From the NCBI RefSeq assembly GCF_036365525.1, contig NC_090371.1, positions 195,197,255-195,261,254 on the forward strand: DNA of 64,000 nucleotides, read 5' to 3'. How positions within the stretch are numbered: position 1 is the stretch's first letter; every line of letters starts with the position of its first letter. Source of the DNA: Heterodontus francisci (Eukaryota). Below, in pieces: positions 12,180 through 51,670 of the stretch. The position numbers and the translations under genes are program-made. Under the pieces are notes generated by a model. That model worked only from the letters and a program-made list of their open reading frames with translations. It did no database searches and was not told the DNA's origin.

Positions 12180-14457
12180 CTGGTACAGGACTTAGGGGTG
12201 CAGATTTCACTGTAGGTTGGGGTTTCCCCTCAACCTGGCACATGTGGCAACTCCTGCAGTACTCCACCACATCTTTGTGGAGTTTTGGCCAGTCAAACTG
12301 CTGTCTTATGCGGGCTTTGGTCTTTCATATACTGGCATGTACAGCCACTGTAGTCTCGTGGGCCATTCTTAATATTTCTATCTGGTACCTCTGTGGCACC
12401 ACTAACTGGGGAACTACTGAGCATTCCTTGTTTTCAGGTCTGTGAGGAGAACTCCATTTCCTCATTCTTTAAATAGTAGCAATCAGGGATTCCCTCTGCT
12501 TCACTTTCAGACTGGGCAGCCAGTGCTAATTCTTGCAATACTGGGTCGGCTCGCTGAGCCTCAGCTAGAGAAAATCCATTTAATTCATTTCCTGAGCCTT
12601 CTAACTTCCCAAAGAAAGTCTCAGACAGACAGACCTCATGGTCATCTGCCTGCAGTGCCAATTCAGTCTCCTTTGGGGAAGCTGGTTTGATCATGGCCTG
12701 ATTCATTACACATTCAGGGAAGCTGCAGGGGTCCGTCACCTGCCACGAGCTGTCTCTTTGACCTCCTGCAGTCTTTCTTTCACTACTGGGGGGGCTACCA
12801 CCTTCACCCCTGCCAGATCATTACCTAGGAGCAGGTCAACCCTGTCCACAGGCAAACGAAGGACAATTCCTACAGTCACTGGTCCCAAAACTAGGTCGCA
12901 CTCCAGGTGCACCCGGTGTACAGCTACAGGCAAACACTGCCCTCCAATACCATTCACCACCAGTCTGGTGTTCACTGCATTCTCTGGGGGAAAGATCAGG
13001 CCTTTTCCCAGTAAAAGGGATCTAGTGGCCCCTGTGTCCCTGAGAATTACTATGGGCTTGCTTGCCCCACCGGAGGCAAAACCCTGATAACCGATTAAAT
13101 TTTCCTGCACTTGCAGCTGTAAGCTTCCTGGGTCTCACTCTTGCTGCAGTTAAAGCCACAGTTTGTTCTGCTGTGCTTTCCATCACGTTCACTTCTTCAC
13201 TAAGCAGGTGTGCCCTGATTAACCCTACAGGTTTTCCCTTTAGTTTCCAGCAGACAGCTTTTAAATGCCCTGCTTTATGACAATGGAAGCACACAGGTCT
13301 CCAGGTTTCACTTTTGCTCGCAGCACCTTCCTTTTTGGCTAGAGGAGGGCCCCCTGTGTCTCCTGCTTTCCTTTGTCTCCCAGGACTGCTTGGGCTCCTA
13401 TCACCTTCCCACCCTTTGTCCTTTTCGGATTTGTGGAGGTGACTAGGAAAGGTTTTCTCCTGGGAAACCGACTTATAAATTAAAGCAAACTCATCAGCCA
13501 GAACGGCCGCTTGCCAAGCTTTCTGAACCCACTGCTCCGCTACATGTGTCTTTATGGAGAGTGGGAGAGAGTGTTTAAATTCCTCTAACAGGATTACTTC
13601 TCTGAGATTCTCATAGTTGAGCTGTACTTTAAGAGCCCTCAGCCACTGGTCAAAAGCCAGCTGCTTAGTTCTTTCAAACTCCAGATAAGTTTGATTACCT
13701 TGCTTCTTGAGGGTTCTAAACTTTTGGCGATAGGCCTCGGGTGCTAATTCATATGCCCCGAGGATAGCATTTTTTGTCACTTCATAATTTGATGAACTCT
13801 AATCTGGCAACAGGGAATAAACCTCATGAGCTTTTCCTGTTAGCTTGTTTTGTAATAAAAGAGGCTTGGTCTCAGCTAGCCATTTTAGCTGCCTTGCCAG
13901 TTTCTCAAAGGACACAAAAAATGTTTCTAAATCTTCTTCATTGAATTTTGGGATTAGTTGAGCTAGTTTTAACAATTCTGTACCCAGCCCTGAATTACAG
14001 TCCTCCATATTGGCCATTCTTTCACTGAGGTTACTCTGTCGCCTCCTAATTAACTCAAGCCACTTCAGCTCTCTCTCTTCACATTCTTTCCAGAATATTC
14101 TTTCTATCTCCCTCTCCTGCCTTTCATTTTCTTCACGTTGCTTCTGGAAGGTCCTTTCTTTCTCCCTCTCCTATCTCTCTCTCTTTCGCTTTCCTTCCAA
14201 TTCAAGTTTCCTTTGTTCCAATTGTATCTTTGCTAACAATACCCTGTCAGAGTTTGCTTCTAACCCTGTTTCTGCTTCTTCAGAATCAAGGGAAAAATGG
14301 TTGGCCACTTAGGAGTTCAGACTTTCTAGCCTTGCCACGTACAGTGATCCCACACAGCTCAGCCATTTTCCTCAACTCCTCCATAGACAGTGCTTTTCAC
14401 TTATCTCAAGTTACTTCACCCTGGCTTGGAGGGCTACTAGCTTCAGTTGCAGACATG
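12180..14457 (-). pseudogene. Gypsy gag-protease-integrase(zinc-binding part) remnant
   Basis: ORFs 13799-14017 (PKFNEEDLETFFVSFEKLA), 13022-13780 (YELAPEAYRQKFR...LLEEFK...CFHCHKAGH), 12736-13110 (RDTGA...LLLGNDL) and 12434-12739 (AQRADP). Confidence 0.85.
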
Positions 14458-18165: not shown

Positions 18166-20031
18166 CAGGGGTGGCCAACATTATCACGTGGCAGGGGGCA
18201 CATTACAATTTTTGTCTTACATAGGGGGCTGGTGAGACAATTTTGGAATGATAAAGGCATTAAAAAAATAATCTTACTATTAATCAAAACAACAACAAAT
18301 GTGTATTTTTGTGAAGAACCTTTAAATTAAAAGACTACTGACTTTCTTGTCACTATGTTGGACACTGAATTAGTGAGATTCTAGCATTTTCTTTTGTTGC
18401 TTGCACAAGTAATCAATGTCTACCTGTACACTTGTTGTAGCAATGCAAAGTATTCCATATAGATGTTAATCTGTCAGGAAGGATCTTGATCACTCTCTCT
18501 CCCTCCTCTCTGTGCCTATCTCTCTCCCCCTCCCTCTCTGTGTCCCCACTCTGTGTGTTGCCCCTGTGTTGTCCCCCGTTCTCTGTGTCATCTCCCCTCT
18601 CTGTATCACCTCCTGTCATTACCCCCTCCGATGCCATTTCCTCCCCTCTCTGTGTCATCCTTATCTTCAAGTTGTCCCCCTTCTCTGTTTTGTCCCCCCT
18701 TTCTGTGTCTCCCTCTCTCTCCCTGACTCCCTTTCTCTCTGTCCCCCTTTCTCTCTCTTTCCCCCCTCTCTCTGTCTCCCCCTCTCTGTCCTTTCTCTCT
18801 CACTCTCTCTTCCTCCTTTCTCTCTGCACCTTCTCTCTCTTTCCCCCCTCTCTCTCTGTCCCCTTTTAACTCTCTCTCTTTCCCCTCTTTCTCTGCCCCC
18901 TCTCTGTCCCCATCTCTCTCTCTCTCTCTCTGCCTTCTCTTTCTCTCTTTCTCTGTTCCCTCTTTTACTCTCTCTCTCAGCCCTCTCCCTCTGCCCCCTC
19001 TCTCTTTTCCCCTCTCTCTCCATCCCCCTTTCTCTCTCTCTCTTTCCTGTCTTTCTCTGCCCCCTCTTTCTCTGCCCCCTCTCTGTCCCCATCTCTCTCT
19101 CTCTCTCTGCCCCCTCTTTCTCTCTTTCTCTGTTCCCTCTTTTACTCTCTCTCTCAACCCTCTCTCTCTGTCCCCTCTCTCTTTTCCCCTCTCTCTCCGT
19201 CCCCCTTTCTCTGCCCCCTCTCCTTCTCTGCCCCCTCTTTCTCTCTCCCTCCGCCTACTTTTTCGCTCTTGCTCTGCCCCCTCTCTCTCTGCCCCCTTTT
19301 CTCTCTCTGACCCTCTCTCTCTCTCTGTCCTATCTCTCTCTCTTTCTCTCTGCCCTCTCTCTCTCTGCCCCACCCTTTCTCTGCCCCCTCTTTCTCTCCC
19401 TCTCTCTGCCTCCTCTTTCTCTCTTTCTCTGTCCCCCCTCTGTCTCTCTTCCCCCTCTTTCTCTCTCTCTGCCCCATTTCTCTCTCTCTCTGCCCTCTCT
19501 ACCTCTCTCTGTCCCCTTCTCTTACTGCCTCTCGTCTCTCTCTCTCTCTCTCTCTGTCTCCCTCTCTCTCTCTGTCCCTGTCTCTCGTTCTCTCTCTCTC
19601 TGCCACCTATTTCTCTCTTATGTTCTGCCCTCTCTCTCTCTTTCTGCCCCTCACTCTCTCTGCCGCCGCTTTCTCTCTCTCTCTCTCTCTCTACACACCC
19701 CACCCCCAGCCCCCCCCCCCCCCCCCCCACTTCTGACCGTTGCAAAGAGTGGGAACAGCGGCTTCTGAACTTTGGATAGATTTGTGGTTTTCCAGTGTGC
19801 TTTAAAAGAAAATCGGAACCACAGGAAAACCCTGAATCTACCCGAAGTTCGGAAAACACTATTCCTGCTCTCAGCACCTGTCAGCTGTGAAAGTGACACT
19901 TAAGAATTTTTTTTAAAGCCAGTCTGAAGAAGCCAATGAGAAATTTCTCATCCCTGAAATTATCAGTCACAGACCTCAAAATATTTTCCACGGACACTGG
20001 TATCCAGGTGCGGACACGTTGTCGACCCCTG
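18166..20031. mobile_element. hAT-like non-autonomous DNA transposon enclosing a CT-rich tract
   Basis: TIRs CAGGGGTGGCCAAC and (reverse complement) CAGGGGTCGACAAC, 12/14 identical. An 8-bp TSD is not recoverable on the right side. Confidence 0.6.
18492..19730. repeat. Polypyrimidine (CT-rich) low-complexity tract with an internal duplication
   Basis: About 1.2 kb of near-pure C/T. Block 18895-19070 recurs at 19074-19250. Ends in poly-C. Confidence 0.95.
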
Positions 20032-20972
20032 GCGGGTAGCCAATTAGTGGCAATTAAGTTGCCACTTGTGGGGAAGACTGTTGATGCCGCCGGAATCTTC
20101 CCAATGGCGGATTGGCCCACCGCTGAAGCCAAAGCCTGGCAGATTGCTGGAGGCAGCCTCCCAGTGGCAGGCCGGAGGCCAGTGAAGCCTCCTTTAATTC
20201 CACCCTAGACACCCACTGCTGAAGCCACAAATGCCTGAGGGTCACAGCTGCGGCCACAGGCCATCTTCTGGAGTGGTTTCCCTCCATGGCCTGACAGCTG
20301 GTGGCCAGACTTTAGTTTTACACCATTGGGGCGGCACAATGGCACAGGGGCGGCACAGTGGCGCAGTGCAGCCTCACAGCTCCAGCGACCCAGGTTCAGT
20401 TCTGGGTACTGCCTGTGCAGAGTTTGCAAGTTCTCCTGTGACCGTGTGGGTTTTCGCCGGGTGCTCCGGTTTCCTCCCACAGCCAAAGACTTGCAGGTTG
20501 ATAGGTAAATTGGCCATTGTAAATTGCCCCTAGTGTAGGTAGGTGGTAGGAGAATTGAGGGAAGGTGGGGATGTGGTAGGGAATATGGGATTAATGTAGG
20601 ATTAGTATAAATGGGTGTTGGCACAGACTCAGTGGGCCAAAGGGCCTGTTTCAGTGCTATATCTCTCTATAAAGTCTATAATAAAGAAAGTGTTCTGAGG
20701 GGCCTCAAGCATAGTCCCCCACCTACAGTGGCAGCACCCACTTTTCCCAGTGAGGCTACTGGCTGCCCACAGCCTCAGGCATTCTCACTGGCCCTTCAAC
20801 CTGCACACCCTGCCCACCATCCTTAGTTGAATAGTGCTCCCAGTAGCAGCTTGTTAATTGACTGCCTCTGGAAAGATCACGCAGGCGGCCAGACCTTGTA
20901 AACCACCAGGGTCAGAACCTGGAAATGGTCCCATCTACCATTTAAAAACTAAGGTGGTAAGATTTTGCCCCT
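20032..20972. mobile_element. Harbinger-type MITE remnant (GC-rich)
   Basis: Ends in GTAAGATTTTGCCCC, similar to the other GGGC-TIR elements in the window; left end lost. Confidence 0.45.
20329..20668 (+). mobile_element. HE1/V-SINE-type SINE
   Basis: Same sequence as 6767-7092 and 24648-25002; the 5' start is duplicated. Confidence 0.88.
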
Positions 20973-24647: not shown

Positions 24648-25002
24648 GTTTAGTTTAGTTTAGAGATACAGCACTGAAACAGGCCCTTCGGCCCACCGAG
24701 TCTGTGCCGACCATCAACCACCCATTTATACTAATCCTACACTAATTCCATATTCCTATCACATCCCCACCTGTCCCTATATATTTCCCTACCACCTACC
24801 TATACTAGGGGCAATTTATAATGGCCAATTAACCTATCAACCTGCAAGTCTTTGGCATGTGGGAGGAAACCGGAGCACCCGGAGGAAACCCACACAGACA
24901 CAGGGAGAACTTGCAAACTCCACACAGGCAGTACCCAGAATCGAACCCGGGTCCCTGGAGCTGTGAGGCTGCGGTGCTAACCACTGCGCCACTGTGCCGC
25001 CC
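24648..25002 (-). mobile_element. HE1/V-SINE-type SINE, full length, (TAAAC)n tail
   Basis: Intact A-box TGGCGCAGTGG and B-box GGTTCGATTC; V-domain; CR1-like tail. Confidence 0.9.
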
Positions 25003-25039
25003 ATGTTACTGACATTGCCTGGATGCAGCCATTGGCCAC

Positions 25040-25133
25040 ATGACCTTCGACCCCATACCATTTTTGTTTCCGGCGTCGGGGCCCCAATGACCTTCGACCC
25101 CATACCATTTTTGTTCCCGGTGTTGGGGCCCCA
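25040..25133. repeat. 47-bp tandem duplication (2 copies) in the Harbinger subterminal region
   Basis: ATGACCTTCGACCCCATACCATTTTTGTT(T/C)CCGG(C/T)GT(C/T)GGGGCCCCA occurs twice. Confidence 0.9.
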
Positions 25134-25147
25134 ATAAAAACCAGCCC

Positions 25148-25250
25148 ATTAACTCTGTTTCTCTCCCCACATATGCTGCCAGACTTGCTGAACATTTCCA
25201 GCATTTTCTGTTTCTAATTTGGATTTCCAGCATCCGCAGTATTTTCCTTT
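25148..25250 (+). mobile_element. Tail of a Penelope-pLTR-like short repeat
   Basis: TTAACTCTGTTTCTCTCC...GCTGCCAGACTTGCTGAACATTTCCAGCATTTTCTG, same family as 8251-8388. Confidence 0.6.
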
Positions 25251-25476: not shown

Positions 25477-27160
25477 TTTTTTTCATTCTTTCATGGGATG
25501 CGAGCATCGTTGACAAGGCCAGCATTTGTTGCCCACCCCTACATGCCCTTGAGAACTGCTGCAGTTTATCTGGTGTAGGAACACCGACAGTGCTGTAAGG
25601 GAGGAAGTTTCAGGTTTTTGACACGGCGACAATAAGGAATAGCGATACAGACCCAAGTCAGGATGATGTGTGACTTGGAGGGGAACTTGCAGGTGGTGAT
25701 GTTCCCATGCATCTGCTGCCCTTGTCCTTCTAGGTGGTGGAGGCCACAGGTTTGGAAGGTGCTGCCAAAGGAGCTTTGGTGAGTTGCTGCAGTGCATCCT
25801 GTAGATGGTACACACTGTTGCCACTGTACATCGCTGGTGGAGGGAGTGAATGTTTGTGGATGGGGTGCCAATCAAGCTGACTGCTTTGTCCTGGATGGTC
25901 TCAAGCTTCTTGAGTGTTGTTGGAGCCGCACCCATCCAGGCAAGTGGAGAATATTCCATCACACTCCTGACTTCTGCCTCGAAGATGGTGGACAGGATTT
26001 GAGGAGTCAGGAGTGAGTTACTCCCTGCAGGATTCCTAGCCTCTGACCTGCTCTTATAGCCACAGGATTTATATGGCTGGTCCAGTTAAGTTTCTGGTCA
26101 ATGGTAATCACTAGGATGTTGAAGGTGGGAGATTCAGCAATGGTAATGGCATCGAAATTCAAGGGGGGATGATTCGATTCTCTGTTGTTGGAGGTGATCA
26201 TTGCCCGCCACTTGTGTGGCACGAATGTCACTTGCCACTTAAGAGCCCAAGCCTGAATGTTGTCCAGGTATTGCTGCATATCGACACAGACTGCTTCAGT
26301 ATCTGAGAAGTAGTGAATGATACTGAACACTGTGCAATCAACAGTGAACATCCCCACTTCTGACCTTATACTGGAGGGAAGGTCATTGATGAAGCAGCTG
26401 AATATAGTTGGGCCTACGACACTGCCCTGAGGAACTCCTGCAGTAATATCCGTGGGCTCAGATGATTGACTTCCAACTGCCACAACCATCTTCCTTTGTG
26501 CTAGGTACGACTCCAACCAGTGGAGAATTTTCCCCCTGATTCCCATTGACTTCAATTTTGCTCAGGCTCCTTCATGCCACACTTGGTCAAATGCTGCCTT
26601 GATGTCAAGGGCTGTCACTCTCACCTCGACTCGAGTTCAGCTCTTTTGTTTGGATCAAAGCTGTAATAACGAGTGGCCCTGGCGAAACACAAACTGAGCA
26701 CAGGTGAGCAGGTTATTGCTGTGGAAGTGCCACTTGACAGCACTGTCAATGAGAGCTTCCAACAATTTGCTGATGTTGGAGAGTAGACTGATAGGGCAGT
26801 AATTGGCTGGATTGGATTCATTCTGCTTTTAGTGGCAGGATATTCCTGGGTATTATACTATATATTATATATTATATTATATTATATTCTGGGTAGATGC
26901 CAGTATTGTAGCTGTACTAGAACAGCTTGGCTAGGGGCACGACTAGTTCTGGGGCAAACGTCTTCAGTACTACTGCTGGGATGTTGTTGGGACCCATAAC
27001 CTTTGCAGTATCCAGTGCCTTCAGCCTTTTCTTGATATCAAGTGGAGTGAATTGAATTGGCTGAAGACAGAGAATCTGGCATCTGGCATCAGGAGGAGGC
27101 CGAGATGGATCATCCTAGCGGCACTTCTGGCTGAAGATGTTTGCAAATGCTTCAACCTTT
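25477..27160 (-). mobile_element. 5'-truncated copy of the ORF1-less LINE family (RT and 3' end)
   Basis: ORF 26007-26555 (GVPQGSVVGPTIFSCFINDLP); 3' end GGCAACAAATGCTGGCCTTG...CATCCCATGAAAGAATGAAAAAAA; internal (TATAT)n at 26851-26888. Confidence 0.9.
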
Positions 27161-27164
27161 GCTC

Positions 27165-28600
27165 AGGATTATCTAAACTGAGCCTCTATGAGGATGGCCA
27201 GATGTGCAGCTGCAGCAGCCCTGCCCACATTATTCTCCCCATCCTCCAGCTCCTCTTCCTCCTCCTCCTCATCGGAAGATGATGATCAGTCTGCAGTTTC
27301 CTCCTTCTGCAGCTCCATTCCTCTCTGCAGCACCATATTGTGCAAGGTAAAGCAGCCCACCACCATTCTGGAGACCCTTGCTGCTGCATGCTGAAGGATA
27401 CCCCCAGATCTGCCCAGGGCACCTGAATCTCATTTTCAGCAAGCCAATGGCTTGCTCAATGATTGCCCTTGTGATGACGTGACTCTGTTGTATCTCTTCT
27501 CTGCATCCTTGACACAGCTCCTGACAGGTGTCATCAGCCAGGTTCTCCGACGGTAGCCCTTGTCTCCTAGGAGCCACCCATTCAGTCTGCTCAGAGATGT
27601 GGTAGACCTGACTGACACAGGATGCAGGAGTCATGGCAGCTTCCAGGAAATCTAGCGTGCACATGCATAATAAACTTGGGGTGTCACAAAGGATCTGCAC
27701 ATTGAGGGAGTAGAATCCTTTCCAGTTCATGAACACATCAGGATTATCTGATGGCACTTGGTTGCCACACGTATGCAGGCGAAGACTCTCTGTACCTGTG
27801 GGAATCCAACCACTACAGCAAAGGCAAGAGCTCTTTGCACCTGACTGGCCTCATCAGTGTCAAAGTGGACATATTGGGTGGCCTTGGCACACATGACACC
27901 TGTGAATTGGGAGACGGACTGTGGGCTGCAGATTGTGAGATCCTGCAGATGTCCTTAGCTGATGCCAGAAAGGCAAAGAGGTCTTCTTCCAAGAGGCTGC
28001 AAATGTCAGCAATGAGCTGGCGCGAGAGCCTGAGCCTCCTGAGGAGCTGTTGCTCATTCATATCGAGGAAGCTGATCCTCTGACTCTACACCCTTTTTGG
28101 GAGAGGTACAACCTCCTTCAAACTGCAATTCTGTGTCCTTCCCCTCTGCTCTGTGGAGCAACATGTGGTGGCGGAGAAGGCAGCTGCTGTTGTTGCTGCT
28201 CCTGCTGCTGGTGTTGGTGTTCCTCTTCCGAGGTCAATATAATGGCTGCATAAGCCTTTCCCATAGGCATAGCTGCAGCCATTCAGTTTCTTTATTTAAC
28301 CATCTTCGAGCATGTCAGTTTCACTGATCAATGTCCTCCCACTGAACTCTCGCCTTGCAGAATTTGGCAAGATCCACAAAGCTTGGAAAATCCAAGCGCT
28401 GGCTGTTAAGGTGGAATAGAAAGATAAATTGGTGTTTAATTGCTATTTAACACATTTAAATATCTGGCCCGACCCTTCAAGGGCGTTTCCCACTCGCTTC
28501 CGAATGCGCCCCTGTTAAATGCCGTCATTTTTCGGGGCTTTAACCCCGCCCCCGGATGCACAGAAGCCTGCCTTCCATTTAGCAGATAAAATTCCATCCA
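27165..28600 (-). mobile_element. PIF/Harbinger element with transposase pseudogene
   Basis: MNEQQLLRRLRLSRQLIADICSLL, NWKGFYSLNVQILCD, WLLGDKGY, IEQAIGLLKMRFRC; TIR-like TAAAATTCCATCC near 28587-28599. Confidence 0.85.
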
Positions 28601-28604
28601 AAGA

Positions 28605-29029
28605 GTCTGCAAAGAAAGATCGACAGGTGAAGTGAGTGGGTAGGAAGGTGGTAGGTTGGTAGAAAGATGGGTAAAGTTGTGTATTTTACAAATGGTGAGA
28701 AGCTTTTAAATGTTGCCATTCAGAAGGATTTGGTTGTCTTTGCATATGAAACATAGAAAGCGAACATGCAGGTAAGGCAAGCAATTAGGAAGGCAAATGG
28801 TATTTGGAATACAAGAGCAAGCAAGTCTTGTTGCAATTATACATGATTTTGGTGAAATCTCACCTGGAGTATTGTGTGCAGTTTTGATCTCAGGACCGAA
28901 GGAAGGATATACTTGCCTTAAAGGGTTTGCAATGGAGGTTCATTAGATTGATTCCTAGGATGAGATGGTTTTCCTATGAATGGAGATTGACGCTTTAATG
29001 TTTAGAAGAAGGAGAGGTGAGCTCATTGA
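28605..29029 (+). mobile_element. CR1 3' fragment (left part; continues at 32220-32232 and 32446-32650)
   Basis: CAAGCAATTAGGAAGGCAAATGG...CACCTGGAGTATTGTGTGCAG...AGAGGTGAGCTCATTGA; resumes as ATTGAAGCATA...TAAGATTTTCAGAGGG after the nested inserts. Confidence 0.8.
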
Positions 29030-29040
29030 GCTCACCAGGT

Positions 29041-32000
29041 AGGCGGTGGCGTAGTGGTATTATCACTGGACTAGTAACCCAAAGACCCAGCGTATTCCTC
29101 TGGGGACATGGGTTCGAATCCCACCACAGCAGAAGGTGAAATTTGAATTTAATTAATAAATCTGGAATTAAAACTAGTCCAATGATGGCCATGAAACCAT
29201 TGTCAATTGTTGTAAAAACCCATCTGGTTCACTAATGTCCTTTTGGGAAGGAAATCTGCTGTCCTTACCTGGTCTGGCCTACATGTGACTCCAGAACCCA
29301 GCATCGACCTTGGCACCGGAAACGACAATGGCAAACCCAGCCATGTCAACCCTGCAAAGTCCTCCTGACTAACATCTGGGGGCTTGTGCCAAAGTTGGGA
29401 GAGCTGTCCCACAGACTAGGCAAGCAACAGCCTGACATAGTCACACTCACGGAATCATACCTTACAGACAATGTCCCAGACACTGCCATCACCATCCCCG
29501 GGTATGTCCTGTCCCACCGGCAGGACAGACCCAGCAGAGGTGGTGGCACAGTGGTATACAGTAGGGAGGGAGTTGCCCTGGGAGTCCTCAATATCAACTC
29601 CAGACACCATGAAGTCTCATGGCATCAGGTCAAACATAGGCAAGGCAACCTCCTACTGATTACCACCTACTGCCCTCCCTCAGCTGATGACTCAGTACTC
29701 CTCCATGTTGAACACCACTTGGAGGAAGCACTGAGGGTGAAAAGGGCACAAAATGTATTCTGGGTGGGGGACTTCAATGTCCATCACCAAGAGTGGCTCG
29801 GTAGCACCACTACTGACTGAGCTGGCTGAGTCCTGAAGGACATGGTTGCTAGACTGGGTCTGCGGCAGGAGGTGGGGGAACCAACACGAAGGAAGAACAT
29901 ACTTGACCTCATCCTCACCAATCTGTCTGCCGCAGATGCATCTGTCCATGACAGTATTGGTAGGAGTGACCACTGCACAGTCCTTGTGGAGACGAAGTCC
30001 CGCCTTCACATTGAGGATACCGTCCATCATGTTGTGTGGCACTACCACCGTGCTGAATGGGATAGATTTCAAACAGATCTAGCAATGCAAAACTGGGCAG
30101 CCATGAGGCGCTGTGGGCCATCAGCAGCAGCAGAATTGTACTCAGCCACAAACTGTAACCTCATGGCCCGGCATATCCCCCACTCTACCATTACCATCAA
30201 GCCAGGAGACCAACCCTGGTTCAATGAAGAGTGCAGGACGGCATGCCAGGAGCAGCACCAGGCACACCTCAAAATGAGGTGTCAACCTGGTGAAGCTACA
30301 ACACAGGACTATCTGCATGCCGAACTGCGTAAGCAGCATGCGATAGACAGAGCTAAGTGATCCCATAACCAACGGATCAGATCTAAGCTCTGCAGTCCTG
30401 CCACATCCAGCCGAGAATGGTGGTGGACAATTAAACAACTAACTGGAGGAGGTGGCTCCACAAATATCCCCATCCTCAATGATGGGGAGCCCAGCACATC
30501 AGTACGAAAGATAAGGCAGAAGCATTTGCAACAATCTTCAGCCAGAAGTGCCGAGTTGATGATCCATCTCGGCCTCCTCCTGAAGTTCCCAGCATCACAG
30601 ATGCCAGACTTCAGCCAATTCGATTCACTCCAAGTGATATCAAGAAACGACTGAAGGCACTGGATACTGCAAAAGCTATGGGCCCTGACAATATTCCAGC
30701 AATAGTACTGAAGACCTGTGCTCCAGAACTAGTCGCGCCCCTAGCCAAGCTGTTCCAGTACAACGACAACACTGGCATCTACTCTGCAATGTGGAAAATT
30801 GCCTCGGTATGTCCTGTACACAAAAAGCAGGACAAATCCAACCCGGCCAACTACCGCCCCATTAGCCTACTCTCAATCATCAGTAAAGTGATGGAAGGTG
30901 TCATCAACAGTGCCATCAAGCGGCACTTGCTTCGCAACAACCTGCTCAGTGACACTCAGTTTTGGTTCCGCCAGGGCCACTCAGCTCCTGACCTCATTAC
31001 AGCCTTGGTTCAAACATGGACAAAAGAGCTGAACTCAAGAGGTGAGGTGAGAGTGACTGCTCTTGACATCAAGGCAGCATTTGACCGAGTATGTCATCAA
31101 GGAGTCCTAGCAAAACTGGAGTCAATGGGAATCGGGGGAAAACCCTCCGCTGGCTGGAGTCATACCTAGCACAAAGGAAGATGGTTGTGGTTGTTGGAGG
31201 TCAATCATCTGAGCTCCAGGACATCACTGCAGGAGTACCTCAGGGTAGTGTCCGAGGCCCAACCATCTTCATCTGCTTCATCAATGACCTTCCTTCAATC
31301 ATAAGGTCAGAAGTGGGGATGTTCGCTGATGATTGCACAATGTTCAGCACCATTCGTGACTCCTCAGATACTGAAGCAGTCCGTGTAGAAATGCAGCAAG
31401 ACCTGGACAATATCCAGGCTTGGGCTGATGAGACAAGTAACATTCACGCCACACAAGTGCCAGGCAATGACCATCTCCGACAAGAGAGAATCTAACCATC
31501 TCCCCTTGACATTCAACGGCATTACCATCACTGAATTCCCCACTATCAACATCCTAGGGGCTACCATTGACCAGAAACTGAACTGGAGTAGCTATATAAA
31601 TACCGTGGCTACAAGAGCAGGTCAGAGGCTAGGAAACCTAAGGCGATTAACTCACCTCCTGACTCCCCAAAGCCTGTCCACCGTCTGCAAGGCACAAGTC
31701 AGGAGTGTGATGGCATACTCTCCACTTGCCTGGATGGGTGCAGCTCCAACAACATTCAAGAAGCTCGACACATCCAGGACAAAGCAGCCCGCTTGATTGG
31801 CACCCCATCTACAAACATTCACTCCCTCCACCACCGACGCATCGTGGCAGCAGTGTGTACCACCTACAAGATGCACTGCAGCAACGCACCAAGGCTCCTT
31901 AGACAGCACCTTCCAAACCCGCGACCTCTACCAACTAGAAGGACAAGGGCAGCACGTACATGGGAACACCACCACCTGCAAGTTCCCCTCCAAGTCACAC

Positions 32001-32217
32001 ACCATCCTGACTTGGAACTGTGTCGCCGTTCCTTCACTGTCGCTGGGTCAAAATCCTGGAACTCCCTTCTAACAGCACTGTGGGTATACCTACCCCAAAT
32101 GGACTGCAGCGGTTCAAGAAGGCAGCTCACCACCACCTTCTTAAGGGCAATTAGGGATGGGCAATAAATTCTGGCCTGGCCAGCGTCGCCCACATCCCAT
32201 GAATGAATTTTTTTTTT
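29041..32217 (+). mobile_element. Near full-length ORF1-less CR1/L2-group LINE with a tRNA-derived head (single APE-RT ORF, disrupted)
   Basis: tRNA-like head at 29041-29128 and a leader of about 300 nt. APE starts KVLLTNIWGLVPKLGEL at about 29356. RT motifs NYRPISLLS, ALDIKAAFDRV, GVPQGSV, MFADD. 3' end GGGCAATAAATTCTGGCC...CACATCCCATGAATGAA. Short ATTGA target duplication in the host CR1. Confidence 0.92.
29047..29122 (+). promoter_or_regulatory. Pol III type-2 internal promoter (A-box and B-box)
   Basis: A-box TGGCGTAGTGG (29047-29057) and B-box GGTTCGAATCCC (29111-29122). Confidence 0.8.
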
Positions 32218-32232
32218 AAATTGAAGCATATA

Positions 32233-40290: not shown

Positions 40291-41313
40291 TGTTAATTCT
40301 TTTGTACCAGAATATTTATGTTCTATACTTAAGTAGAACAGCTTTCTTATTTTAGATCGATAGGTTAAGAGTTAGCTCAATGGTGCAGAATGGAGCATAT
40401 TATCTGGTGGCAAATGCCCTTAGGGAAGGATGTGGGACACCTTATATTGTCAAGTAATGGAATCACAAACTCACTACAGCAAAAGTAAATATGCATTCTC
40501 TCTCCACACAATCAATAAATCACTGAGAACTGAGCCTCGAAATACTTCGTCATTCTCCATCACCTAATTTTACAAAGGCAAATGTTACAAGTGTGCTTTT
40601 CTCTACATTGGCAGTGTTATAACAATGCAGGTAAGATCTTTTACTTCAAACTAAACATGTCATTGCACAAGGCAGGACAGGTTCTAAACAAATATCGACA
40701 TGCTAAAGTAATGTGCTGGCTAAACACCTTACTCTATAACATAGAACAAACTAATCGAGTTCCAGTCTCCTACCGAGCTAATTGTTTTGCAAATGTTGTT
40801 ATATTAAATTTATTCACCAGCATTTGATGCTCAAGACTGTGAATGAATTCAGAAATTACAGTAACAACACAATAGCAAGCTTCCTATATCTCTCAGCTAG
40901 ACTGCCACACGTGCCTGACTCATTGGGCTGAATTTTATTCGGGTGCCGCGCTGCAAAGTGGCGCCCTTTAAACTCAGCAGTGTGCCCGCATTCAGCGGCT
41001 GCCGAGGAGCCCCCGCGATATTTCGCACGGGGGCTCATTTAAATAGTGAGGGCGGAGCGCCCACCCTCGGAGACGTGTGGGGGCAGCCGCCGTGTCGCAG
41101 GCAACGGCATCCGGTGTCACATCGCCGGTGCCATTTTTAAAGGGCTTTAAGCCCTTACAAATAGTTATAATTTTTAAAGGGAAAATATAATTGATTTTTA
41201 TTTAAAATAAAAATAAGTGATGGAGGCCCTTCCCCAACACCGCCCCCCACCCCCCGCAATAGTCATTTAATTGCCTGAAATGACTATCAATTGATTTTTC
41301 AAATACCCCAACT

Positions 41314-44300
41314 TAGAGTCATCGAGTCATAGAGTCATACAGCAAAGAAACAGGCCCTTCGGCCCACCGTGTCCATGCCGACCATAATGCCCATCTATAC
41401 TAATCCCACTTGCCTGCATTAATTCCATATCCCTCTATGCCTTGCTCATTCAAGTACCTGTCCAGATGCCTCTTAAATGTCACTACTGTTCCTGCCTCCA
41501 CCACCTCCTCAGGCAGCTCATTCCAGATACCCACTATCCTTTGTGTGAAAAATCTACCCCTTTGAACCCCTTTAAACCTCCTCCCTTTCACCTTAAATCT
41601 ATGCCCTCTAGTTTTAGTCACCCCTACCATGGGAAACAGACTCTGGCTATCTACCCTATCTATGCCTCTCATAATTTTATATACCTCTATCATGTCCCCT
41701 CTCAGCCTCCTTCGCTCCAGCTAAAACAGCCTAACCAATCTCTCTTTATAACTCAAGCCCTCCAAACCAGGCAACATCCTTGTTAATCTTTTCTGCACCC
41801 TCTCTAGCTTAATCACATCTTTCCTGTAGAGCGGCCACCAGAACTGCACATAGTACTCCAAATGCGGCCTCGCAAACATTATGTAGAACTGTAACATGGC
41901 GTCCCAACTCTTGTACTCAATGCCTCGGCCGATGAAGGCAAGCATGCCATATGCCTTCATCCCCACCCTGTCTACCTGTGTTGCCACTTTCAGGGAACTA
42001 TGTACTTGCACCCCAAGGTCTCTCTGCTCAACAACACTCCCCAGGGCCTTGTCATTCACTGTATATGTCCTGCCCTGGTTTAACTTCCCAAAATGCTTCA
42101 CTTCACACTTGTCTGCGTTAAATTCCATTTGCCAATCCCTTGCCCACTTTCCCAGTTGATCTATATCCTGTTGTAACCTTAGACAACCTTCTTCACTGTC
42201 CACTATACCACCAATTCTGGTGTCATCTGCAAACTTACCAATCATGCCCCCTACATTCACATCCAAGTCATTAATATATATGACAAACAACAGAGGGCCC
42301 AGCACCAATCCCTGCGGCACACCACTGGTTACCGGCCTCCAATATGAAAAACAACCCTCCACTACCACCCTCTGCCTCCTATCACCAAGCCAATTTTGTA
42401 TCCAATTTGCTAGCTCACCCTGGATCCCATGTGTTCGAACCTTCTGGTCCAGCCTACCATGCGGGACCTTGTCACAGGCCTTGCTAAAGTCCATGTAGAC
42501 AACGTCCATCGCCCTGCCCTCGTCAATCCTCTTGGTCACCTCCTCGAAAAACTCAATCAAGTTCGTGAGACATGATTTCCCACGCACAAAGCCATGCTGA
42601 CTATCCCTAATCAGACCAGGCCTTTCCAAATGCATATAAATCCTGTCTCTCAGAATCCCTTCCAATAACTTTCCCACCACTGATGTAAGGCTCACCGGCC
42701 TGTAGTTCCCTGGCTTATCCCTGCTGCTCTTCTTAAATAAAGGCACAACATTAGCTATCCTAAAGTCTTCTGGTACCTCACCCGTGGCTAACGATGATAC
42801 AAAAGTCTCTGCCAGGGCCCCAGCAATCTCCTCCCTTGCTTCCCACAGCATCCTAGGATACACCTGGTCAGGCCCTGGGGATTTATCCACCTTAATGCGC
42901 TTCAAAACCTCCAATGCCTCCTCCTTTGTATTATTGATATGCTCCAGGATATCGCTGTTCCAGCCCTTGAACTCATTAGCTTCCATGACCTTCTCCACAG
43001 TAAATACAGACAAGAACTATACATTTAAGACCTCGCCCATTTCCCATGGCTCCACACATAGATTGCCACACTGATCCTTAAGGGGACCTACTCTCTCCCT
43101 AGCTACCCTTTTACTCTTAATACACTTATAGAATCTTTTAGGATTCTCCTTTATCTTATCTGCCAGGGAAATCTCATGCCCCCTTTTCACCCTCCTAATT
43201 TTCCTTCTTAAGTGTACTCCTACATCCTCTATACTCCTCAAGAGACTCACTTGATCCCAGCTGCCTATACCTGACATATGCCTCCTTCTTTGTCCTGACC
43301 AGACCCCCAATATCCCTCGGTAACCCTAAACCTGCCAGCCTTGCCCTTCCATCTAACAGGAACATGCTGGCCCTGAACTCTTCCTATCTCACTCTTAAAA
43401 GCCTCCCACTTGCCAGACATCCCTTTACCTGTAAACAGCCTCTCCCATTCAACTTTTGAGAGTTCCTGTCTGATGCCATCGAAATTAGCCTTCCCTCAAT
43501 TTAGGACTTCAACCTGAGGATCAGTCCTATCCTTTTCCATAACTATCTTGAAGTTAATAGAATTATGGTCACTGGTCCCAAAGTGCTCCCCCACTGACAC
43601 ATCAACCACCTGCCCAGCCTCATTTCCTATGAGGAGGTCGAATGTAGCCCCTTCTCTAGTAGGGTCATCCACATACTGCTTCAGAAAACTATCCTGGACA
43701 CACTTAACAAATTCTTCCCCATCTGATCCCTTAGCACTAAGGCAGTCCCAGTCAATATTAGGGAAGTTAAAATCACCTACTATTACAACCCTATAATTCC
43801 TACACCTATCTGTGATTTCCCTACATATGTGCTCCTCACTTCCCTCTGACTATTGAGGGGCCTATAGTATAATCCCATCAAAGTGATCACCCCTTTCTTA
43901 TTTCTAAGTTCTACCCATATGGCCTCGCTGGACATTCCCCCCAGGATATCCTCTCTTAGTACTGCCGTGATGTCCTCCCTAATCAATAGTGCAACTCCCC
44001 CTCCTCTCTTACCTTCACCTCTGTCACGCCGGAAGGATCGGTACCCCGGAACATTGAGCTGCCAGTCCTGCCCATCCCTCAACCACGTTTCCGTAATAGC
44101 TATAATATCACAATCCCATGTACCAATCCATGCTCTGAGTTTATCTGCCTTACCTGTAAGGCTTCTTGCATTAAAGTAAATGCAGTTTAGCCTATCAGAC
44201 CTTCCATGCTCCCTGCCCTGCCCCGCCCCTGCTCGGCCTGTCTACTGGACTTGCTTGCTTTAACCTCTACATTTGCCTCAACTATCTCATCGGAGAGACT

Positions 44301-45672
44301 ACTACTTTGGGTCCCACCCCCCTGCAAGACTAGTTTAAACCCTCCAGAGTAGTACTAGCAAACCTTCCCGCAAGGATATTGGTCCCCTTCCAGTTTAGAT
44401 GCAACCCATCCTTCTTGTACAGGCCACTTCTGCACAGAAGAGATCCCAATGATCCAAGTAGCTGAAGTCCTCCCGCCTACACCAGCTCTTCAGCCACGCA
44501 TTCATTTGCCTTACCCTCCTATTCCTACCCTCACTAGCACGTGGCACAGGAAGTAATCCTGAGATTACAACCCTAGAGGTCCTGCTTTTTAACCTTCTGC
44601 CTCTATTCACTTTGCAGGACCTCATCTCTCTTCCTGCCTATGTCGTTAGTACCAATATGGACCACGACCTTTGGCTGCTCCCCCTCCCCTTTCAGAATGT
44701 CCTGCAGCCGCTCCGAGATATCCTTGACCCTAGCACCAGGGAGGTAACATACCACCCTGGAGTCTTGTTTGTGGCCACAGAAACGCCTATCTGCACCTCT
44801 TCTGATAGAATCCCCTCTCACAAGAGCTCTTCCAACCCTTTTCCTCCCCTGCTGTGCAGCAGAGCCCTCCGTGGTGCCACAAACTTGGCTGTTGCTGCTT
44901 TCCCCTGGGAGGTCATTCCCCCCCAACAGTATCCAAAGCAGTATATCTGTTTGAGAGGGGGATGGCCACAGGGGACTCCTGTACTACCTGCCTACACCTA
45001 CTACTCCATCTGGTGGTAACCCATCTCTTTTCTGCCTGTGCAGCCATTACCTGCGATGTGATCACCTCACTAAACGTGCTATCCACAACGTCCTCAGCAT
45101 CGCGGATGCTCCACAGTGAATCCACCCACAGCTCCAGCTCCGTAATGCGGGTAGCCAGTAGCTGAAGATGGATACACTTCCTGCACACATGGTCGTCAGG
45201 GACACTGGAAGCGTCCCTGATATCCCTCATAGCGCAGGAGGAGCATATCACAGGCTGAGCTCTCCTGCCATGAATTACCCTTAGTTTAATTAGTTACTCC
45301 CTTAATTTAAAAATACTAATTACGCTGTGGGCCTTGTTCTACCCACTCCAATCTAAAGTCCTTAAAAAAAACACTTTAGTCATACTCACCTTATCACCAG
45401 AGGTTTTATTTTCAACAGAAAAAAACTTTCCCCTTTTTTTTAAAGATATTCTAACAGCTGCTACTCACCAACCAATCAGCTTGTAGCTCCCCTCTGACGT
45501 CACTGTTGGCTTTTTTTTTCAAAACTCCGGCGCGCTGGAAGAGCTCCTCTCTGCTCCGTTCCCGGAAGGTATGAGACTGGGTCTCGATCCTCGGGGTCAA
45601 TTTATAGGCTCAGCACTCAGCGTTTTCCCCACAGGTCCGCTCCGTTCCTCTCTGCTCTGCTCCCGGAAGGTA
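41314..45672 (-). mobile_element. Near full-length CR1 LINE (5' UTR, ORF1 with zinc finger and SGNH esterase, ORF2 APE-RT, (TATGACTC)n tail)
   Basis: ORF1 pieces CSSC...HVCRKC, RGDS, VVVHIGTND, DHWDLF. ORF2 pieces GGGVALLI, PGNYRPVSLTS, VYMDFSKA, GVPQG, KFADD. Stops, frameshifts and one internal deletion. Confidence 0.95.
41721..43013 (-). pseudogene. CR1 ORF2 reverse transcriptase domain (430-aa open segment of a disrupted ORF)
   Basis: All RT motifs are in one frame, but the flanking ORF2 is broken. Confidence 0.9.
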
Positions 45673-46544: not shown

Positions 46545-49500
46545 GGCAATAATAAAACTTGAATTGGAAGAATGGGAGATATGGGGAGCATTTTGGAGAG
46601 AAAGTGAAAGAGAAGAGAGGGAATTTAAGTCAAAAGAGATGGAACTAAGGCAAAAGGGTAGTCTTGAATCCAGGGAAAATTCAGGTCAGGAAGAATCTGA
46701 ATTCAGCTCAGGACCCAGCAAAAAGTTGTTTAAATTTATACAGGCTCTTCCTAAGATCGAGGAAAGGGACGTAGAGGCATTTTCACATCTTTCGAAATAG
46801 CCAAACAGATGAAATGGCTGAAGGAAAGTTGGACACTGCTTCTGCAAAGCAGGTTGGTAGGCAGAGCTCATGAAGTTTATGCCATGCTTCCTGAAGAGGC
46901 TTCTACAGATTATGAGATAACAAAAAAGGCTATTCTTGTTGCGTATGAGTTAGTCCCTGAAGCTTACCGTAAGAAGTTTCAGAAATTACGGAAATTGGCT
47001 CGGCAGACATATATAGAATTTGAGAGGGTGAAGCAAATTAATTTTGACTATTGGATATGGACATTAGAGATATAAACACATATAAGAACCTTTGGGAGTT
47101 GATTCTCTTAGAAGAGTTTGAAAACTCCAGTCCTTCACTAGTGAGAACTCATGTAGATAACCTGAAAGTTTTGAAAGCCAGGCAAGCAGTGGAAATTGCT
47201 GATGATTTTGAGCTTGTGAATAAGCCAAAACCTTTCGTCCATCACCCCCTAACCTTGAGAAGGATAGAAAGTGGAAGAGTGAAAGGAAGGCAAGTAGCCG
47301 GGGACAAGAAGGAGCAGATGGGAATGTCCCGGGATCACCTCCTCAGGTCAGAAATTAACATGCTCAGGGTAGAAGTGAGGTTCGCAAGCTAAAGTGTTGT
47401 CATTGACACAAAACGGGTCATCTTCATTCAGAGTGCTGGAAATTGCCAGGTAAACCCATAGGACTTGTTAGTTCTGCAAAGCTAGTGCAGAGGAAAAGAC
47501 TCTGACTGAGAGTATAGCATACCAGGCTACAGCTTTAACGACAGTTGTAAAACCAGATACTAAAACTAAAAGGTGTGTAGAGGTTAAGAATAAAATATTC
47601 AAAAGTTATAATGAATTTTCATCAAAGGGGAATGTAACTCCATATCCCATAAGTGAGGCAGGAAAACCTATCATTATAGTCAGGGATACAACCCAAGGAG
47701 CAACCCAAACACGCTTGCTGGGGAAAGATGCAATGTTTCCACCAGAGAGTGCCTTGAATGCTAAAGTTTTAGTTAAGGGAATTGGTGAGGAGTTTATGTC
47801 CATACTTTTATATAAAGTACGCCTAGAGAGTGACTTAATATCTGGGATAGTAACTGTAGGAGTTGTCCACAGTTTGCTGGTAGAGGGAATTGATCTACTC
47901 CTAGGAAATAATTTGGCTGGATCAAAAGTATCAGTTTCTCCTATAATTACAGAGGAACCAAGTGAAATTAAGGAAATGGCGCAATTACAGGAACAAGTTC
48001 CAGGAATATTTTCTGCGTGTGTAGTCACCCGAGCAATGGCGAAACAGGATCTATTGTCGGAGGTAAAAGGGACACCACCAACAGATAGCCAAGTACCTGA
48101 AAACTTATTTGGGATTTAGATAATCCAAATGAGATGTTTGACAGATCTTCTATCATTGCAGCACAGCAAGCTGATCCAGAGATATACCGAATGGCACAGA
48201 CGGCTCTGACAGAAGCTGAGGCGAAAGGAGTTCCGGAAGGCTATTATATGGCAAATGGGGTTTGAGGAGGAAATTGCCACTGCCTCATAGACCTGCCAAC
48301 GAAGACTGGACAATTGTTGAACAGATAGTGGTACCGCCTAAATATCACCAGGGATTATTAAGGTTAGCATACAACATTCCTTTTGCAGGACATAGGGAAT
48401 TCGGAAGACCAAATCACGCATAAGCCAACATTATTACTGGCCAGGTCTTACAAAGGATGTGAGACAATTTTGTAGGACATGCCATGCACGTCAAATGGTG
48501 GGGAAAACCACAACCTACCATAAAGCCTGCACCGCTAGTTCCCATACCAGTTATTGAGGAACTATTTAAAAGGGTATTGGTAGACTGTGTAGGACCTTTG
48601 CCAAAAACAAAAGTGGGACATCAATACATACTTGCTATCATGGATATGGCTACTCAATTTCCAGAGGCCATTCCTTTGAGGACAATTACTACTAGAATAG
48701 TAGTAGAAATGTTAACCCAATTCTTTACGAGATATGGGTTACCATTTGAAGTTCAATCAGATCAAGGTTCTAATTTCATGTCTAGGATATTTCAAGAAGT
48801 CATGAGCCATTTGGGGATTAGACAGTTGAAATCTTCAGCATATCACCCACAGTCATAGGGAGCTTTAGAAGGATTTCACCAAACTGTCAAAAAAATGGTT
48901 GGAACATACTGTCACGAATATCCACGTGACTGGGCTAAAGGAATAGACTTTTTTTTATATGCCACATGAGACGCACTGAATGAGTCTACAGGCTTCAGTC
49001 CTTTCGAATTTATGGACATGAAGTAAGAGATCCTCTAAAACTTAAAAAAGACATATTCTTGGAACAAAATAATGAATCTTTGATACTAGACTATGGGCTG
49101 GATTTTACCTTAGGTGGATGGGAATTCGCAACCGACTTTTACATGGTGGCGAACCTGCTTCCACCTAGCCCAGGGATCCGTACCGCATTTTACGGTCCCC
49201 AGGATTTAATTGTCCCAAGGCGGTACTTTCACCCACTTGAGTGAGGAGGTCTCGCCTCAGTGAGCTGCCGGCCAATCAGCTCTGGGTCTCAGCAGCGCCA
49301 CCGGAAGCAGTGCTGGGACTGCAGCCCAACCGACACCATGGAACGTAGAGATGAGGTAAGTTAGGCTTGCCTCACCAGGGGGATTGGTCCTTCCCTGGTG
49401 GAGTGGTTGTTTGGGGGGAGGGGGGCATCTTAGGTCCCGGCGGTGGGTTGGGAGGCGGGGGCGGCCCTCAATCGGGTATCCTGTGTCCGACTGCCATGGC

Positions 49501-51670
49501 GCCGTCACCCGCCCCCCCCCCACCACCCCAGAGCGCGGGAAGGCTGGAAGCTATCACTAGGCAGCCTTTCACGTCCCCAGCACACCCGCTTGCCATGGGC
49601 AAATTACCCGTGGAGGTGGGCGTGAGCCTTTAAGTGGCTGTTAAGTGGACGGCTGTTCCCTCCACCCACCACCCCCACCCAACCCCCACCGCCCGATCGC
49701 TGTAAAGTCGACCGGAGGCGGAAGTGGGGCAGGTAGGCCTCCCGGAGCCTCCCGCTCAATTTTACACCACCCCCAAGCCGCCCCCACGTCACCAACTGAC
49801 CCACTGGGGCCCTGTAAAATTCAGCTCTATGTATCTGTGTTCTGGGAAAGACTCACGAAAGCTTGCGGTGTAGCTCAGGAACACCTTAAAGCATCCCAAG
49901 CCATTATGAAAAAATGGGCAGTCAAGAATGCAAAATCCCATGATTTTCAACCAGGGGATGAAGTAATAGTATTGTTACCGTTACAGGGAGAACCATTAAA
50001 AGCACTGTTCAGTGGCCCATATAGAGTGGTCAAGAGTAGGTAAGGTACTTTACTTGATTGACACCCCTGATCGCTGGAAGAAGAACCGGTTGTGTCACAT
50101 CAATATGCTGAAGCAATATTACCACAGGGAGGAGGATAAGTTAGTATAGGTATGTCAGGTAATCGAGACTGTTCAGAAGGAAAAAGATAGTGAGGATGAG
50201 GCAGAAGCAGACCTAGGAAATTCTCAGAATGAACCTCCGACTACCAGATTAGCGAATATAGAATGGCTAGGAAAATTAGACAATATGCTTTTGCACTTTG
50301 AGGCAAAACAGCGTAAAGACCTAACCAGGCTTTTCATAACTTTTAAACGAGATCATAGGGATAAACCGGGATATACAACCTTAGCCACACATGATGTGGG
50401 TATAGGGGGAACCATTCCTTTAAAACAACATCCTTGCCACTTAGGTCCAGACAGACAGGCTCAAGTGGATGGCAGAGGTCCAATTCATGCTGAAGGACAG
50501 CTTAGTTGAACCTAGACAGGACAGCTGGAATTCACAGGTGGTCTGGATGCCTAAACCTGATGGGTCGGCTCAAACTTGCATAGACTATAGAAAAGTCACT
50601 GTGGTAAAGAAGCAGACTCCTACCCAAATTCTCATTTAGAAAACTGTATGTACAGAGTGGGCAACACCATGTGTCTTAAAGAGACAGATGTGTTGGAGGG
50701 ATACTGTTAAAATTCCTCTGACACCTCAAGAACAGGAAAAGTCAGCTTCTGTTGCACCAGATGGAGTTTTCCAGTATCAAGTGGTGCCACACGGGTTAAG
50801 GGGTATTCGAGAAACTTCTCAGAGAATAAGTGAATCCAGTAGTGGTCAGTGCTCCTAGCTGAGGTGATGGACAATAAGGACACTTGGAAGGAAAACACGA
50901 AACAACTGGGAGACTATGTTTGGAAATTTGAAATGGGCTAATTAGGACAACCTTTGCAAAATTTAAAGCCAAAAAAGTTTTGATGGAACTTGTTACTGTA
51001 ATCTTACCATTTTAGAAAAACTGTATATCTATATATCAGGGGAAAAAAGTTAGTGTTTTTCAATTTCTATTTTTTACATTGTAATGAAACACATTTTAGG
51101 AATTCGTTTCATTTCGCCGGGGCAGAGGTGTCATGATCATGTGTTTTTTTTCTCCTCGGGAAATATTGCGGTGCGCCTTTAAGGCTGTAAAAGATCACTA
51201 CATCTTTCAGGCAGCCATCTCCAAGAGACTGAGTGAAGGTGCATTCTGGTTGCTTAGCTACAACCATACAGAGAGGGAGAACAGACATACGATGTATCCA
51301 TTTTGATTTTGAAAACTGGCTAACTGATTTGTTCAAAGACAGACAGACACAGCTTTGCTAGCACCTGAAGGGAGAAAGAAGAGCTCTCTAAGACAATTTG
51401 TTTAACATCTCTCTCAAAATTCTAAAAACTTCAAACCAGATTTATTTCTTAAAGAAATAACAAATTATTGATCTACGGTGTTAATTGTTGAACTGAACTG
51501 CTGAACTGGATTGCTTAACTGAACTGCTGAATTGAACTGCCGAATTACTATCGTCGGATTCACCGGACCTTGGAAGACTGCAAGTGTACTTTGACTGTGT
51601 TGTATCAGATGACCATTCGTCAGGAAGCGTAATCTGCAAAAATGTTATTGTTATTTCTATTTTTTTTCAG
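46545..51670 (+). mobile_element. Gmr1-type Gypsy element, 5'-truncated and decayed: gag, PR, IN, RT remnant, 3' LTR from 51129
   Basis: Gag YELVPEAYRKKF; protease region LLLGNNLAG; integrase VLVDCVGPLP...SDQGSNF...AYHPQS and FSGPY; then RT remnant PLKQHP...CIDYRKV; PPT GGGGCAGAGG followed by TGTCATG. Right end approximate. Confidence 0.88.
49095..49827. mobile_element. Harbinger-type MITE (TSD TAT) inserted in the Gypsy integrase
   Basis: GGGCTGGATTTTAC ... GTAAAATTCAGCTC with TAT on both sides; the integrase frame reads LDY|VSVFWERL across it. Confidence 0.88.

Follow-up and report, generated by a model that had tools for sequence, protein, structure and literature searches.

The window analysed here, a 64,000-nt stretch of contig NC_090371.1 from the 6.0-Gb genome of Heterodontus francisci, contains at 29038-32217 a dead yet full-length copy of a non-LTR retrotransposon with an element length of 3.28 kb. 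The longest open frame left in this focal copy is 228 codons. The following features were delineated for the copy and for two sister copies in the window:

29016-29037, forward strand: insertion site in a CR1-like 3′ fragment (labelled by eye), with an inverted duplication at 29016-29036 seen in the sequence
29025-29029, forward strand: left 5-bp repeat ATTGA, lying inside that inverted duplication
29038-29130, forward strand: head derived from tRNA-Ser(AGA), with an enlarged variable arm, delimited by alignment to the tRNA gene L264 and by the sharp common 5′ end of copies
29047-29057, forward strand: A box, read from the sequence and retained in old LINE copies, SINE copies, and published consensuses
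29111-29121, forward strand: B box, likewise read from the sequence and retained in published consensuses, being GGTTCGAATCC here and GGTTCAAATCC in the SINE and older copies
29131-29303, forward strand: non-coding body common to the partner SINE, cut short by a private deletion of ~100 nt
29296-29370, forward strand: what is left of the N-terminal, Arg-rich leader, in frame with the ORF according to translations of natural copies
29371-29980, forward strand: APE endonuclease domain (Pfam PF03372, E 6.9e-11; frames), with stops in the focal copy
30825-31432, forward strand: reverse transcriptase domain (Pfam PF00078), frameshifted in the focal copy, with its FADD motif at 31322-31333
31433-32154, forward strand: C-terminal ORF region up to the family stop codon (32152-32154), from frames and copy translations
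32142-32207, forward strand: 3′ tail common to the partner SINE by sequence comparison, comprising the last four codons, the 3′ UTR, and ATGA repeats
32208-32224, forward strand: T10 and then two or three A, replacing the usual A tail, and the right repeat ATTGA (32220-32224), from the sequence
1-1773, reverse strand: sister copy (L070), 5′-truncated and headless, sitting in a Tx1-like ORF1 and having its full 3′ end beyond the window
25485-27159, reverse strand: older sister copy, 5′-truncated and 80% identical by sequence comparison

A first-pass annotation, made from the letters alone, had described this copy as an ORF1-less LINE with an integral tRNA-SINE head. The A box and B box that it placed at the start are indeed present, and the APE domain starts at 29371 with the reverse transcriptase domain after it, leaving the focal copy without an ORF1. 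The short leader, taken there for a property of the element, looks short because ~100 nt were lost privately at 29296-29303; the same deletion takes out the SINE/LINE junction, the candidate UUG start, and an out-of-frame AUG. The copy at 1-1773 does show the same leader-ORF join, as had been noted, but is itself truncated and headless and hence no proof of an integral head, which is supplied by other copies. The count of sense TTTT runs was exact: besides the T10 there are two, at 29241 and 30960, and the family has a T3 at each of these sites, at element positions 205 and 2035. Target-site duplications were looked for as a system among 35 copies, with none found convincing.

Other repeats surround the copy. 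A young, near full-length CR1 with an esterase-like ORF1 (by eye) lies at 41300-45300 on the reverse strand and shows ~95% identity to its best 40 hits, and the Tx1-like LINE ORF1 at 1716-2634 on the reverse strand, with zinc knuckles and ZCCHC3-type RNA-binding domains, is split by the sister copy; both families served as controls. Broken LTR-retroelement pieces with gag-, protease-, and integrase-like frames (by eye) occur at 12700-14170 (reverse strand) and 46755-50500 (forward strand), Harbinger-nuclease-like fragments (by eye) at 7343-7774 (forward strand) and 27269-27850 (reverse strand), and a GA/CT-rich simple-repeat tract of 1.4 kb at 18400-19880. Another tRNA-type SINE, at 20205-20666 and 24664-25148 (reverse strand), has no similarity to the element studied here and is presumably V-SINE-like.

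The head of the element aligns to the genomic tRNA-Ser(AGA) gene L264 with 51 invariant columns and a longer variable arm. It is not called by ARAGORN or by Rfam at the gathering score, the best Rfam match being tRNA-Sec at an E of 0.27, below threshold. The A box at element position 11 and the B box at 75 stand at tRNA spacing at the 5′ end. With a query spanning head and ORF, every one of the 39 other loci found had the head continuing into ORF sequence, and 35 had both ends and a sharp common 5′ end; such a query is biased, so head and ORF were each searched alone. The ORF-only query gave 29 loci other than the focal one, of which 24 had the head: in 19 the sequence ran without a break as far as the first 20 bases, and in 5 the head was partial or interrupted, two of these being perhaps one duplicated locus. 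The remaining five copies are 5′-truncated at scattered points, and among the 29 loci there was neither a common longer 5′ part nor an ORF1-bearing form. The head-only query led to 26 of 29 loci continuing into the ORF, the others being two head fragments and one young internal deletion (L149).

On a wider scale, the exact 26-base junction between leader and ORF occurs 2,374 times in the H. francisci genome and is spanned by contigs from four other organisms. Seven elasmobranch Zenon consensuses from five species start with the same head (first 400 nt, by eye), and six exact B-box/body motifs match only those seven rows among ~1,000 CR1-group consensuses, of each of which the first 400 nt were compared. 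Older copies (78-88% identical) are also headed, changes in the head track changes in the LINE body, and both boxes are retained across subfamilies; box conservation among young copies was left out of the evidence, those copies having been picked by head likeness. The head, as claimed for this copy at the outset, is therefore an integral part of the LINE and has travelled with the ORF into thousands of copies. Elsewhere in the material, ~50 tRNA-Ser(AGA)-like matches stand in tandem with a period of ~2.15 kb at C34:12636732-12762173, and ARAGORN calls a tRNA-Ser(AGA) with an element-like variable arm, possibly a shortened head, at L265:1491-1569 (reverse strand).

On its sequence, the element is an elasmobranch Zenon LINE of the CR1 group, ORF1-less and A-tailed, with a single APE-RT ORF (Pfam), no ORF1, and a poly(A) tail. 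The clade label comes from a 2026 survey of the CR1 group, through a match, by eye and with exact motifs, to the first 400 nt of seven consensuses (CarCar, HypSab, RhiTyp, and ScyCan Zenon-1; SquAca Zenon-1/2/3) in the available part of that source (PMC13343379). There, the Zenon LINEs of sharks and rays are all ORF1-less and poly(A)-tailed, and those of the elasmobranchs are of the same family as the present element, with lengths of 2,886-3,314 nt, a single APE-RT ORF, no ORF1, and an A tail. The absence of ORF1, correctly seen in the first-pass annotation, is a trait of the clade and normal for Zenon; this escaped the first reading, as did the A tail, and the family itself was already known. 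The words "tRNA," "promoter," and "Deu" do not occur in the main text of the survey, and neither the head nor the partner SINE, the T-run avoidance, or the missing AUG was found described in its available parts (PMC13343379). The first 400 nt of the hagfish and coelacanth Zenon rows of the survey, one of them low-confidence, were inspected by eye, and no head of this kind was seen. The headed Zenon is a real and conserved variant of a known LINE, not found described in the openly accessible literature consulted; further searches for relatives gave one weak match only.

A SINE sharing both head and tail with the LINE, which the first-pass annotation had proposed to look for, was found in a 400-nt form in which element positions 1-323 run directly into the last 75-80 bases. 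The exact SINE junction occurs 1,660 times in the genome. In all 25 junction loci sampled, the alignment follows the leader as far as position 323 and then passes into the tail; 12 of them reach the head, and the SINE loci are 70-92% identical to the young LINE leader; the join was also seen as loose ends in four other organisms. Pairwise identity is 82.6% for the SINE, 81.4% for the oldest sampled LINE copies, and 97.2% for the young LINE burst, making the SINE copies approximately as old as those oldest LINE copies and much older than the burst; the tree of the heads is unrooted. Young internal deletions of the LINE do arise, as in L149. The partner SINE may well have arisen in this way, by internal deletion of the LINE, and borrow its enzyme.

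The ORF of the family is under purifying selection, with a pN/pS of 0.12 between old and young copies, which indicates that the protein is produced by the lineage itself. From element position 307 the frame runs for 975 codons without a stop, its first Met being codon 285, past the endonuclease. Ten AUGs occur in the first 520 nt, and none of them opens the ORF; the lack of any in-frame AUG ahead of the endonuclease had been overlooked by the first reading. The part shared with the SINE has as its final codon a TTG, at position 319. It is present in 97 of 102 copies, 88 times in frame, and in all nine older copies; in the closest full-length relatives, the initial Met lies 25-30 residues ahead of the same motif. 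The UUG at 319 is likely the start codon, given the absence of an in-frame AUG, the retention of TTG-319 in old and young copies, and the position of the relatives' Met. In the published consensuses, inspected by eye, three of the five species have the UUG in frame; a stop follows it in Squalus, and it is out of frame in the whale shark. AUG-353 is present in six of the seven consensuses. The AUG at 353 was rejected as a direct start: it lies one base out of frame, opens a 46-codon upstream ORF, and is ATA in 9 of 11 older copies here. A frameshift from AUG-353 is the alternative route to the ORF. A TATAAAA near position 343, also considered, is absent from the published consensuses. The leader frame shows 3 synonymous and 6 non-synonymous differences between old and young copies, and the leader fold has a z of −2.6. 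Non-standard initiation suits an uncapped RNA, but occurs in other LINEs too.

Because vertebrate Pol III terminates at runs of four or more T, strand-specific avoidance of T-runs is a prediction of Pol III read-through, for which it counts as indirect evidence. Over the whole sense strand, the column majority of 25 copies has seven T3, no T4, 13 A4, 13 C4, and eight G4; the absence of sense T4 over 3.3 kb holds in young and old copies alike (column majority), with private T4s in single copies. Within the ORF, 4 T3 runs were observed as against 12.9 expected, none of 5,000 synonymous-codon shuffles giving as low a count, and A, C, and G runs were as expected under codon shuffles. The T4 depletion suspected at the start did not reach significance by itself under codon shuffling (0 as against 2.1 expected, P 0.08); the significant signal lies in the T3 runs. 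Dinucleotide shuffles, which absorb a TT deficit, gave a P of 0.07 for T3 and 0.17 for T4. The T3 deficit was seen in four natural frames of 519-764 codons (P 0.0005-0.0015), with a fifth of 279 codons giving a P of 0.35. It extends to codon junctions: third-position T stands before a T-starting codon in 5 of 56 cases as against 103 of 351 before A or C (P 0.0009), the same T-T junction test giving a P of 0.08 in the single natural frame L043. Older copies keep the T-run pattern across 82 synonymous codon differences.

Comparison with other LINEs, also proposed in the first-pass annotation, supported the depletion, with one of its suggested comparators, an L2-like set, left out because its majority segment, probably a different repeat, yielded no frame. 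The CR1 (P 0.40) and Tx1-like (P 0.31) LINEs of the same genome show no junction effect and have 2.9 and 2.6 T4 per kb, respectively. Further comparators were drawn from 80 related metagenome loci, 39 of them with an intact frame of at least 600 codons; ARAGORN, a tool that also misses the focal-type head, was run on 40 of the 80 and called no tRNA. None of the 39 ORFs displays comparable avoidance: their observed/expected T3 ratio is 0.75-1.20 (median 1.02) as against 0.31 in the shark element, they have at least 11 T3 per kb as against 1.4, and none is T4-free or matches the A and B box pattern. Two are significantly T3-depleted, more mildly than the shark element, and one comparator (L364) also avoids T-T junctions. 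The element is T-poor (20%), with one of the 39 comparators at or below 22.5% T and the other 38 richer. Phe makes up 1.8% of its ORF product, less than in any of 102 relatives of similar length, among which the minimum is 2.3% and the median 4.3%. The closest non-shark relatives, P0021, P0023, and P0024, are also Phe-poor (2.3-2.9%; P0021 2.3%), and more Pol III-type Zenons may exist, for example among them.

The 3′ ends tell against one part of the original proposal. The T10 at 32208-32217 is present as described, but does not represent a family terminator: of 84 LINE tails examined, 70 could be parsed, and T1-T3 precede the A run in 55 and T4 or more in 15, so that a terminator of T4 or more is not a family feature. 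A runs are of ~5-10, some following T runs. The remaining Pol III transcripts would end in flanking DNA, as those of many SINEs do. About one-fifth of LINE and SINE tails have T4-T6 and then A4-A7 (e.g., L046, L095, and L099), with T and A together near 10 and a near-palindromic T5A5 common. Tail T-runs, including the T10, were considered as a terminator or an oligo-U remnant and rejected as such, given that T+A is ~10, that T5A5 recurs, that there is no relation to copy age (rho 0.07), and that they are also in SINE tails; they look more like genomic conversion of the A tail, or else oligo-U addition and then adenylation of the RNA.

Judged from these sequence patterns, the 3.3-kb element is probably transcribed by Pol III from its own tRNA-derived head, with likely non-AUG translation. 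The fuller reading, to which we give slightly better than even weight, is of an autonomous protein-coding Pol III retrotransposon existing since before the shark-ray split, with an uncapped 3.3-kb RNA from which terminators have been purged even at the level of codon and amino-acid usage, a UUG start at the end of a tRNA-headed leader, and its own SINE by deletion. TFIIIC would bind the A and B boxes, and Pol III would start at the G where copies begin, read through because the strand has no T4, and stop at downstream T-runs. The uncapped RNA would be translated from UUG-319 at the end of the SINE-shared leader, which may itself recruit ribosomes. Through target-primed reverse transcription at the A tail, a mode known for the CR1 group, the APE-RT protein would then copy the RNA that encodes it, and the SINE, arising by internal deletion, would use the LINE enzyme. 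Uncapped RNA is poorly translated, which counts against such a scheme. So does the position, in the available part of one source, that such elements are confined to ~1.3 kb by the processivity of Pol III (PMC10886601).

A possible, though doubtful, alternative is that the integral head belongs to a Pol II transcript. The tRNA module would then be an internal Pol II promoter acquired by capture, an anchor for TFIIIC, or a structure in the RNA acting in stability or translation, and the T-run avoidance would come from another RNA-level pressure, such as signals for U-rich decay, splicing, or polyadenylation. Two sources, in their accessible parts, treat every characterised LINE as a Pol II unit (PMC10886601; PMC5786205). 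The A tails fit this alternative, as does the P of 0.08 for the absence of T4 alone, but T-run avoidance is absent from the CR1 and Tx1-like LINEs that share the genome with the element. Moreover, both boxes are retained at tRNA spacing across species, copies begin ~10 nt ahead of the A box, where Pol III transcripts begin, and on a capped mRNA there would be ten AUGs in the way, none of which opens the ORF. Less plausible, and in our estimate improbable, is a division of labour in which a Pol III RNA is copied and the protein is provided in trans from capped Pol II transcripts reading through copies that lie within host genes. Translation of uncapped RNA would be spared, and contigs of X15 (RNA only by guess) extend into the flanks at the head; however, a pN/pS of 0.12 needs the copied loci to be the protein-supplying loci, and the read-through RNA would likewise be without an in-frame AUG. 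Chance adjacency—a SINE having landed beside a 5′-truncated LINE at the focal locus alone, as the odd, shortened leader of this one copy could suggest—retains practically no probability and is refuted by the 2,374 exact junctions, the five published species, and the four other organisms.

The divide between LINEs and SINEs rests on the polymerase, with coding LINEs being Pol II units and short non-coding SINEs Pol III units. If Pol III transcription of the headed Zenon is true, a long-lived natural 975-codon ORF behind a tRNA promoter would break this rule and provide a natural model for translation of Pol III RNA, and the birth of a SINE could be a single step, the deletion of the middle of a tRNA-headed LINE. 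Even under Pol II transcription, this is an unremarked architecture in an abundant repeat family of sharks and rays, and one that repeat annotators will split into a SINE and a LINE.

Among known systems, as far as the available parts of the sources describe them, Persaeus, the SIDE of Lepidoptera derived by deletion from the lepidopteran Zenon, has the build of the partner SINE but for the head, being without tRNA homology or a Pol III promoter, whereas here the long and short forms both carry one (PMC6740152). A tRNA-like sequence is mentioned in RTE-1_DAn and related LINEs, and the bipartite RTE/Vingi-derived SINEs demonstrate that SINE bodies can derive from LINE 5′ ends; these systems, however, belong to another clade, and their SINEs gained a head after deletion, with the LINE being headless (PMC5786205). 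Cassandra, Helenus, and Ajax (TRIMp3) are retroelements with an internal Pol III promoter, but are non-autonomous, LTR-type, non-coding, and at most 1.3 kb long, and their autonomous partners are argued to require Pol II (PMC10886601). The Deu-SINEs SacSINE1 and LmeSINE1 resemble the partner SINE in being tRNA-headed SINEs of cartilaginous fishes, of 400-460 nt, SacSINE1 differing in its Deu domain and L2 tail as against the Zenon tail found here (PMC5499810).

An identity of the partner SINE with SacSINE1/Deu was considered and rejected: five Deu-motif copies, taken from 1.19 Mb of loci, were compared with the SINE body and scored within the shuffled range, leaving a faint motif likeness only, and the published Deu alignment looks unlike the body (PMC7245038 supplement). 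An L2-type tail on the SINE was likewise discarded, the tail being that of Zenon. Separate Deu-motif SINE copies are present in the same genome (L059, L149, L212, L238, and L262); some carry what we take to be an L2-like tail, and they are presumably the SacSINE1 of H. francisci.
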